From Escherichia phage BZ13, in the sequence record FJ483837.1: a stretch of DNA of 3,412 nucleotides, one strand, 5' to 3'. The notes below the pieces were generated by a model. It did no database searches. It saw only the letters and a list, made by a program, of their open reading frames with translations, and was not told the origin of the DNA. How positions within the stretch are numbered: position 1 is the stretch's first letter; each line of letters opens with the position of its first letter. Below, piece after piece: positions 1,272-3,412 of the stretch. The translations under genes and the position numbers were made by a program.

Positions 1272-1664
1272 ATGGCAACTTTACGCAGTTTCGTACTCGT
1301 CGATAATGGCGGTACGGGGAATGTTACTGTCGTTCCTGTTAGCAATGCCAACGGCGTCGCTGAGTGGCTTTCTAATAACTCGCGCAGTCAAGCTTATCGC
1401 GTGACTGCCAGTTATCGTGCGTCAGGCGCGGACAAGCGCAAGTACACCATCAAACTTGAAGTACCGAAAATCGTTACTCAAGTTGTTAACGGTGTCGAGC
1501 TGCCTGTTTCCGCATGGAAGGCTTATGCCTCTATTGACCTGACCATCCCGATCTTTGCTGCAACTGACGATGTGACTGTTATTTCCAAGTCACTCGCTGG
1601 TCTGTTCAAAGTTGGGAACCCTATCGCTGAAGCTATCTCTTCGCAGAGCGGCTTCTACGCGTAA
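1272..1664 (+). CDS. cp: Coat (capsid) protein, 130 aa including initiator Met
   Basis: ORF 1272-1664 with GGAG (1260-1263) 8 nt upstream of the ATG. The translation (MATLRSFVLVDNGGTGNVTVVPVSNANGVAEWLSNNSRSQAYRVT...IPIFAATDD...GNPIAEAISSQSGFYA) is plainly homologous to the MS2 coat (ASNFTQFVLVDNGGTGDVTVAPSNFANGVAEWISSNSRSQAYKVT...) and, from memory, nearly identical to the group II phage GA coat. Mature length of 129 aa matches MS2/GA coats. Confidence 0.95.
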   Translation: MATLRSFVLVDNGGTGNVTVVPVSNANGVAEWLSNNSRSQAYRVTASYRASGADKRKYTIKLEVPKIVTQVVNGVELPVSAWKAYASIDLTIPIFAATDDVTVISKSLAGLFKVGNPIAEAISSQSGFYA

Positions 1665-1855
1665 TGGGTCTGAAAGCAAAACATAAGGAAAACCTATGTT
1701 CCGATTCACAGAGATCGAAAAGACTCTATGTATGGATCGCACTCGCGATTGTGCTGTCCGATTTCACGTCTATCTTCAGTCATTGGATATGGGGTCTTCT
1801 GATCCTCATTCTCCAGACTTTGATGGACTTGCCTACCTTCGTGATGAGTGTTTAA
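1664..1855 (+). CDS. lys: Lysis protein (MS2 L-like single-gene lysis protein), 63 aa, +1 frame overlapping coat stop and replicase 5' region
   Basis: ATG 1664-1666 shares its A with the coat stop codon TAA 1662-1664 (UAAUG). Basic N-terminus (KAKHK...RSKR) is followed by a hydrophobic segment LYVWIALAIVLSDFTS that closely matches the MS2 L segment LYVLIFLAIFLSKFTN, including the conserved Leu-Ser dipeptide (codons at 1754-1759). Position between coat and replicase in a different frame is canonical for MS2-like phages. Confidence 0.8.
   Translation: MGLKAKHKENLCSDSQRSKRLYVWIALAIVLSDFTSIFSHWIWGLLILILQTLMDLPTFVMSV
1681..1699 (+). promoter_or_regulatory. Translational operator hairpin (coat-protein binding site) containing the replicase start codon
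   Basis: ACAUAAGGAAAACCUAUGU: stem 1681-1685 paired with 1695-1699, unpaired A at 1686, G1687-C1694 and G1688-C1693, loop AAAA 1689-1692. The replicase AUG (1696-1698) is in the 3' arm. Same architecture as the MS2 operator ACAUGAGGAUUACCCAUGU (7 bp stem, bulged A, 4-nt loop), with A rather than U at loop position -5. Confidence 0.8.
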
Positions 1856-3294
1856 CTAAACATCCTTCACTAGGAAACAGTAATTCGGATGCACGCCGTA
1901 AGGAATTGGCATATGCCAAACTTATGGATAGTGATCAAAGATGCAAAATCCAAAACAGTAACGGATACGACTACTCTCACATCGAAAGTAGCGTACTGAG
2001 TGGTATACTCAAGACTGCTCAGGCCCTTGTGGCGAACTTGCTTACGGGTTTTGAATCTCACTTCCTGAACGATTGTTCATTCTCCAATGGAGCCTCACAA
2101 GGGTTCAAGTTGCGGGATGCAGCGCCGTTTAAGAAGATCGCTGGGCAAGCAACCGTTACAGCTCCTGCTTATAACATTGCCGTGGCCGCCGTTAAAACGT
2201 GCGCGCCGTGGTATGCTTATATGCAGGAAACGTATGGCGATGAAACCAGATGGTTTCGTCGGGTATACGGCAACGGTTTGTTTTCTGTTCCGAAGAACAA
2301 TAAAATAGATCGGGCTGCCTGTAAGGAGCCTGATATGAATATGTACCTTCAGAAGGGGGCGGGATCTTTTATAAGAAAACGCCTTCGCTCCGTCGGTATA
2401 GATCTTAACGATCAAACGTGCAATCAGGAATTAGCCCGACTTGGCAGCATTGATGGTTCACTCGCTACTATTGATCTTAGTAGCGCTAGTGATTCTGTCT
2501 CTGACCGCCTTGTCTGGGATTTACTTCCGCCACACGTTTATTCATACCTCGCTCGCATCCGTTCATCGTTCACTATGATCGATGGTCGGTTGCACAAGTG
2601 GGGCCTGTTTTCTACTATGGGAAACGGCTTTACATTCGAACTCGAGTCCATGATTTTCTGGGCTTTGAGTAAGAGTGTTATGCTGTCCATGGGTGTTACT
2701 GGCTCATTAGGCATCTACGGTGATGATATAATCGTCCCCGTTGAGTGTGCCCCAACTCTCCTTAAGGTACTATCCGCTGTGAACTTTCTTCCTAATAAGA
2801 AGAAGACGTTCACTACGGGTTACTTTCGTGAAAGTTGTGGTGCTCACTTCTTTAAAGGTGCCGACATGAAACCTTTTTACTGCAAGCGGCCAATGGAAAC
2901 CCTTCCCGATGTCATGTTGCTATGCAACAGGATAAGGGGTTGGCAGACCGTTGGTGGAATGTCAGATCCGCGGCTCTTTCCTATTTGGAAGGAGTTTGCT
3001 GATATGATTCCGCCGAAGTTTAAGGGTGGATGCAACCTGGATCGCGATACTTACCTCGTTTCACCGGATAAACCTGGTGTCACATTGGTTCGAGTCGCTA
3101 AGGTACGTTCTGGTTTTAACCATTCGTTCCCGTACGGCCATGAAAATGGTCGCTACGTCCACTGGTTGCATATGGGATCGGGAGAAGTTCTCGAGACCAT
3201 ATCCTCCGCCAGGTTTAGGTGCAAACCTAACTCGGAATGGAGAACACAGATCCCTCTATTTCCTCAGGAATTAGAGGCCTGCGTTCTCTCCTGA
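1696..3294 (+). CDS. rep: RNA-dependent RNA replicase, beta subunit (532 aa)
   Basis: Long + strand ORF ending TGA 3292-3294. Catalytic YGDD motif at nt 2716-2727 within GIYGDDIIVP; AAGGA (1685-1689) lies 6 nt upstream of the ATG. Last and largest gene of the levivirus order, with length close to the MS2 replicase. Confidence 0.95.
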   Translation: MFRFTEIEKTLCMDRTRDCAVRFHVYLQSLDMGSSDPHSPDFDGLAYLRDECLTKHPSLGNSNSDARRKELAYAKLMDSDQRCKIQNSNGYDYSHIESSVLSGILKTAQALVANLLTGFESHFLNDCSFSNGASQGFKLRDAAPFKKIAGQATVTAPAYNIAVAAVKTCAPWYAYMQETYGDETRWFRRVYGNGLFSVPKNNKIDRAACKEPDMNMYLQKGAGSFIRKRLRSVGIDLNDQTCNQELARLGSIDGSLATIDLSSASDSVSDRLVWDLLPPHVYSYLARIRSSFTMIDGRLHKWGLFSTMGNGFTFELESMIFWALSKSVMLSMGVTGSLGIYGDDIIVPVECAPTLLKVLSAVNFLPNKKKTFTTGYFRESCGAHFFKGADMKPFYCKRPMETLPDVMLLCNRIRGWQTVGGMSDPRLFPIWKEFADMIPPKFKGGCNLDRDTYLVSPDKPGVTLVRVAKVRSGFNHSFPYGHENGRYVHWLHMGSGEVLETISSARFRCKPNSEWRTQIPLFPQELEACVLS

Positions 3295-3380: not shown

Positions 3381-3407
3381 GGTGACTAGTTTGCTTGGCT
3401 AGTCACC
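3381..3407 (+). other. 3'-terminal hairpin preceding the single-stranded ACCCA tail
   Basis: GGTGACTAG (3381-3389) is the exact reverse complement of CTAGTCACC (3399-3407), loop 3390-3398; followed by ACCCA (3408-3412). Analogous to the terminal hairpin of the MS2 3' domain. Confidence 0.65.
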
Positions 3408-3412
3408 ACCCA

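Follow-up and report, generated by a model that had tools for sequence, protein, structure and literature searches.

The replicase start codon of this phage lies in the 3' arm of a small stem-loop whose loop consists of adenosines only. This arrangement raises two questions, namely whether the stem-loop is the operator at which coat protein represses replicase synthesis, as in MS2, and what the adenosine at position -5 of the loop, where MS2 has a uridine, implies for the specificity of the coat protein that would bind it.

Genomic setting and fold of the hairpin

The 3412-nt window (by which we mean the whole stretch of DNA that was analysed) could be aligned over its full length with complete group II genomes and represents a near-complete group II levivirus genome of the species Emesvirus japonicum. 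It is 94.5% identical to phage GA (X03869/NC_001426), 94.3% identical to BZ13 DL20 and ~85% identical to KU1 and BZ13 T72, all four of which are assigned to Emesvirus japonicum. The 5'-terminal ~53 nt are missing from the window, whose first letters correspond to about GA nt 52–54, and its 3' end, ...ACCACCCA (3400–3412), aligned to the GA 3' terminus. Its open reading frames are the canonical four, and the coat gene occupies the position assigned to it in the original prediction:

53–1255: maturation protein, longest open reading frame, 400 aa from ATG 53 (PF03863)
1272–1664, plus strand: coat protein gene, encoding the putative trans-acting repressor of the hairpin (PF01819 Levi_coat; 129/129 residues as in PDB 1GAV)
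1664–1855, plus strand: lysis gene, 63 aa, in another frame (open reading frame; PF11125 Phage_MS2_lysis, 29.3 bits; corresponding to the GA lysis CDS 1717–1908)
1696–3294, plus strand: replicase beta-subunit gene, 532 aa (open reading frame; PF03431 RNA_replicase_B, 727 bits; same length as the GA replicase)

Group II organisation was defined here by a lysis start at the coat stop, a 532-aa replicase and a genome of ~3.4–3.5 kb. The window has the coat stop and lysis start overlapping as UAAUG at 1662–1666, followed by a lysis frame of 63 aa and a replicase of 532 aa, together with the 94.5% identity to GA. The hairpin is located inside the lysis gene, and thus in a doubly coding region, with its first 15 nt upstream of the replicase frame.

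The UAAUG overlap is common to the window, GA and DL20. Exactly at this site, KU1 (L007 1715–1737), T72 (L008) and three IMG/VR contigs (L010–L012) carry an 18-nt insertion that shifts the annotated lysis start 18 nt downstream, and the same genomes have a further 3-nt insertion at window 1677/1678; the operator is unchanged despite both insertions. Just upstream of the lysis start, a separate hairpin appeared at 1629–1655 in the 141-nt fold, and window 1630–1654 is homologous to a GA stem-loop (X03869 1683–1707) annotated as 'pot. function in lysis gene control'. The maturation protein probably starts at ATG 83 rather than ATG 53, in view of a GGAGG at 75–79 and the annotation of 390 aa for GA. 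On the minus strand, nucleotides 594–622 gave a weak Rfam match to the archaeal C/D box snoRNA sR43 (18.7 bits versus a threshold of 45, E = 0.16), which, in the genome of an RNA phage, is a chance match.

For the locus itself, a hairpin with a 7-bp stem, a bulged A and a 4-nt AAAA loop (A at -5), whose 3' arm contains the replicase AUG, had been described at 1681–1699, and all of these elements are indeed present there:

1681–1699, plus strand: core of the operator hairpin, ACAUAAGGAAAACCUAUGU (lower stem of 5 bp, unpaired A, upper stem of 2 bp, loop AAAA; MFE -3.3 kcal/mol)
1680–1700, plus strand: extended hairpin with an eighth pair, A1680–U1700 (context folds; p = 0.71), equivalent to the 21-nt stem-loop of GA at X03869 1733–1753
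1689–1692, plus strand: tetraloop AAAA, positions -7 to -4, in which A1691 is -5 and A1692 is -4, the invariant loop A
1685–1686, plus strand: unpaired purine in a degenerate register, either A1685 or A1686 pairing with U1695
1686–1689, plus strand: AGGA, resembling a Shine-Dalgarno sequence for the replicase gene and located 6 nt ahead of the AUG, within the upper stem and loop

In DNA letters, 1681–1699 reads ACATAAGGAAAACCTATGT. Its MFE structure, (((((.((....))))))), comprises a 7-bp stem (5+2) with G-C as the two upper pairs, and the two possible bulge registers are equal (-3.3 kcal/mol each, with pair probabilities of 0.50 and 0.475). The ATG at 1696–1698, inside the 3' arm, opens the 532-aa frame, and the AGGA motif, whose counterpart in the MS2 operator is GAGGA, would serve as the ribosome-binding site. 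On its own, the 19-mer has little stability (-3.3 kcal/mol, z = -2.3), and the hairpin is thermodynamically weak overall, at -3.3 to -4.9 kcal/mol. The prediction that it would fold in the context of its flanking sequence held for every length analysed: the hairpin was part of the MFE structure in 41-, 81-, 141- and 3412-nt contexts, with pair probabilities of 0.93–0.985 in the full-length partition function (3412 nt), and the A1680–U1700 pair was present in the 41-, 81- and 141-nt context folds.

Chance, covariation and relation to known operators

The closest known counterpart is the operator of phage GA (X03869 1733–1753), to which the window is identical in 22/22 nt, AAACAUAAGGAAAACCUAUGUU. 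It also occupies the same place among the coat, lysis and replicase genes, and there is no difference within the element, whereas the surrounding genome is that of a distinct strain, 94.5% identical. The 1986 GenBank record of GA annotates 1733–1753 as 'pot. stem loop structure; pot. binding site coat protein', and the GA operator was reportedly characterised by Gott, Wilhelm and Uhlenbeck (Nucleic Acids Res 1991;19:6499). A comparison with further operators of GA/BZ13 genomes, likewise envisaged in the original prediction, extended the 22/22 identity to DL20, T72 and KU1; with three KU1-like IMG/VR contigs included, the 22 nt around the hairpin are AAACATAAGGAAAACCTATGTT throughout. The proposal of a GA-type group II replicase operator, MS2-like but with a purine at -5, is thus borne out by the 94.5% genome identity to GA, by the GA-identical hairpin with its annotation in X03869, and by a coat protein identical to that in 1GAV, and we regard it as almost certain that, in this group II (GA-type) RNA coliphage, the hairpin constitutes the translational operator of the replicase gene.

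The structure could alternatively be incidental, a stem-loop that arose by chance and is conserved only through its coding for the lysis protein and the replicase N-terminus. With a search pattern of two stem segments (5 bp and 2 bp) separated by an unpaired purine and closed by an NNNA loop, dinucleotide shuffles of the window gave a chance expectation of 0.49 hairpins per shuffle, and 40% of the shuffles contained at least one, so that the architecture alone is no more than chance would provide. Conservation speaks in the same direction: 332 of 3391 22-nt windows (10%) are invariant among five group II genomes, and full conservation of the hairpin within the group is therefore not exceptional and, being confounded by the double coding of lysis and replicase, not decisive. 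The significance of the hairpin derives instead from its being the sole match of this architecture in the window, from its exact MS2 register to the replicase AUG, from its folding in all contexts, from covariation and from its identity with the annotated GA operator. For one fixed position, the chance expectation falls to roughly 0.49/3394, or ~1.4e-4.

As invariance within group II is not decisive, covariation was taken from MS2, fr and an uncultured relative (L015) instead. In an alignment anchored on the AUG and comprising GA-type, KU1, MS2, fr and L015, a small sample of 5 distinct sequences, 97% of the stem cells were paired, compared with 11–51% in controls in which the 3' partners had been slid. 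Compensatory double changes occurred at 2/7 pairs: in group II, A-U replaces G-C immediately below the bulge, and in L015, U-A replaces G-C in the upper stem. Loop columns -7 and -4 were invariant A in all of these sequences. An incidental stem-loop would have no reason to lie in a register to the AUG exactly as in MS2, fr and L015, nor to show compensatory double changes at two stem pairs; furthermore, its first 15 nt precede the replicase frame, and coat protein binding to the identical GA hairpin has been published, as cited in PMC3561173. We consider the incidental origin highly improbable, and a chance hairpin was rejected because the AUG register is exact, stem pairs have changed in a compensatory manner and the GA operator has an identical sequence.

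In Rfam, positions 16–36 of the MS2 operator model RF02359 align to 1679–1699, and all pairs are formed. At 18.1 bits (E = 0.49), the match is below the gathering threshold of 40, as only the hairpin part of the model matches and its 5' flank is unaligned. We therefore did not accept formal membership of RF02359 and counted the match as alignment support.

With the group I phages MS2, R17 and fr (Emesvirus zinderi), the hairpin shares the 7-bp stem, the unpaired A two pairs below a 4-nt loop, the A at -7 and -4, and the position of the replicase AUG in the 3' arm. The MS2 operator, found at the same place, is ACATGAGGATTACCCATGT. Differences are confined to few positions. The loop is AAAA in the window, AUUA in MS2, AAUA in fr and AUAA in L015, such that -5 is A in the window but U in MS2 and fr, and the pyrimidine characteristic of group I is absent. 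The pair below the bulge is A-U in the window versus G-C in MS2, which results in the degenerate bulge register and in a hairpin weaker than that of MS2 (-4.9 versus -6.0 kcal/mol for the 23-mers). The element is accordingly a homologue of the MS2/R17 operator that lacks the features specific to group I and has every sequence, coat and genome feature of group II.

More distant relatives retain less of this design. The operators of PRR1 and phage M, two pilus-specific leviviruses from other genera, likewise have the AUG in the 3' arm, an unpaired stem purine and, four nt ahead of the AUG, an A in the loop (PMC3561173), but their loops, AGCUA and AAUAA, are 5 nt long (RNAfold) compared with 4 nt here, and the PRR1 coat protein (2vf9) is much more distant (E = 1.9e-5).

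The uncultured Emesvirus-like sequences from IMG/VR deserve separate mention. L015 carries the operator ACAUGAGUAUAAACCAUG at 1684–1702 (also found in L013 and L014), with GU/AC as the upper stem and a loop, AUAA, that has A at -5 as well. Their coat protein is 57% identical to that of GA and 56% identical to that of MS2, with Ile and Asp at the positions of MS2 Tyr85 and Asn87. Judged from these sequences, coat protein and operator of L013–L015 may constitute a pair of distinct specificity.

Coat protein and specificity at position -5

The protein encoded at 1272–1664 is identical in all of its 129 residues to the crystallised GA coat protein (PDB 1GAV) and 62% identical to the MS2 coat protein. 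The residues that align with MS2 V29, T45, S47, R49, K57, T59, K61, E63 and Y85 are kept, while Ser replaces Asn87, Lys replaces Asn55 and Arg replaces Lys43. Asn87, which is Ser in this protein, is a residue that we take to contact the -5 base in MS2 complexes, and Lim, Spingola and Peabody (J Biol Chem 1994) are said to have traced discrimination at -5 to residue 87. Such a role would be consistent with the Asn/Ser difference apparent from the alignment.

The coat sequence in the GenBank entry of GA (X03869) is 98% identical to that of the window, with Ala for Thr59 and Gly for Val79 in GA (counting Met1). Residue 59 aligns with MS2 Thr59, presumably an RNA-contact residue. The GenBank sequence of the GA coat protein may represent a variant or contain old sequencing errors.

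All group II genomes combine A at -5 with Ser at the Asn87 position, and group I phages combine U with Asn. This partition would be expected if the pair of coat protein and operator were orthogonal to that of MS2, with a switched specificity and not just a more tolerant one. We nevertheless hold orthogonality to be unlikely. The GA coat protein, according to what is reported of Gott et al. (1991), simply lacks the strong preference of group I proteins for a loop pyrimidine and, unlike these, is indifferent to which of two positions the unpaired purine occupies; the essential features that Gott, Wilhelm and Uhlenbeck (1991) reportedly defined are that an otherwise paired stem contains an unpaired purine and that the loop has four bases, the last of them A. 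This reported tolerance matches both the degenerate bulge register and the A at -5 seen here. In addition, the MS2 coat protein has been crystallised with A or G at -5 (PDB 2C50, 2C51; structure list in PMC10610835), and MS2 and GA coat proteins showed crosstalk in an in vivo assay (10.1101/168625). The original prediction had deduced from the purine at -5 a coat specificity different from that of MS2; the difference as such finds support, but GA specificity is better described as relaxed at -5 and in the position of the unpaired purine than as switched.

Among the solved structures found, GA coat protein is represented by 1GAV and 1UNA only and not by a protein–RNA complex; in the structure table of PMC10610835, the GA row lists the VLP only. 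One may thus speculate, with little expectation of being right, that the protein could recognise the all-A loop and the register-degenerate A by a geometry unseen in MS2 complexes, for example with either A1685 or A1686 in the adenine pocket, or with A(-5) stacked differently on the Tyr85 equivalent, beside Ser instead of Asn. Even if true, such a geometry would only add structural detail to an interaction already known and would not make the element a new one.

Proposed control of replicase synthesis and packaging

How the element would work is deduced here from what has been published for MS2/R17 and for GA, whose hairpin and coat protein are identical to those of the window. In E. coli, GA coat protein acts as a working repressor on the native GA site (10.1101/168625), and an operator function in both repression and encapsidation is described in PMC10610835. 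PMC3561173 names the A at -4 and the unpaired purine as critical for coat protein binding in GA (citing Gott 1991) and refers to Carey 1983 for binding of the MS2 coat protein to its hairpin. Extrapolating from there, ribosomes would early in infection reach the replicase AGGA and AUG in the upper stem, loop and 3' arm of the marginally stable hairpin. Upon accumulation of coat protein, a dimer would bind the folded hairpin and recognise the unpaired purine (A1685 or A1686) as well as the loop adenines, above all A1692 (-4); A at -5 would then represent the natural group II state, matched by Ser at the position of MS2 Asn87. Binding would lock the ribosome-binding site in the helix and thereby shut off replicase synthesis, and this high-affinity complex is probably also the nucleus for specific encapsidation.

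The weight could also be distributed the other way round, with the hairpin acting chiefly as a nucleation or packaging signal for capsid assembly and translational repression being a side effect. PMC10610835 indeed presents the operator as a strong encapsidation site and operator-like stem-loops as packaging signals. However, both roles use the same complex and are compatible, and the enclosure of AGGA and AUG, in the same register in every relative examined, is needed for repression but not for packaging. Moreover, a scan of the window for further operator-like hairpins of the GA consensus revealed none with a lower stem of at least 4 bp; one case with a 3-bp stem, at 939–953, is within chance expectation. 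A primary role in packaging thus appears rather improbable to us, and we retain the reading of the hairpin as a translational operator.

A second RNA element that may bear on replicase synthesis emerged from the whole-window MFE structure, in which a sequence inside the coat gene forms six pairs with a sequence close to the operator:

1367–1372, plus strand: GCUUUC within the coat gene, 5' arm of a predicted long-range helix (whole-window MFE, p = 0.98–0.99)
1672–1677, plus strand: 3' arm of this predicted helix, GAAAGC (six pairs with 1367–1372)

Two nucleotides separate the 3' arm from the extended operator stem, and three separate it from the core stem. Neither arm varies among five group II genomes, and there is thus no covariation to read. 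The positional analogue in MS2 is the pairing of UGAAUGG (1427–1433) with CCAUUCA (1738–1744), which we take to be the Min Jou interaction that makes replicase translation dependent on translation of the coat gene. By analogy, the helix of 1367–1372 with 1672–1677 may couple replicase translation to coat translation as in MS2.

With a hairpin identical to that of GA and a coat protein identical to that in 1GAV, the operator–coat pair is, by its sequences, one that is already known. The window adds no new sequence variant of either partner, and the value of the finding is confirmatory, lying in the correct annotation of a group II levivirus. The interaction itself is of wider interest, as the coat protein–operator hairpin is a textbook case of sequence-specific RNA–protein recognition and of translational autoregulation in RNA phages, and underlies the MS2/PP7 RNA-tethering tools. 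The GA variant illustrates how one change in the protein (Asn to Ser) and one in the loop (U to A at -5) can shift specificity.
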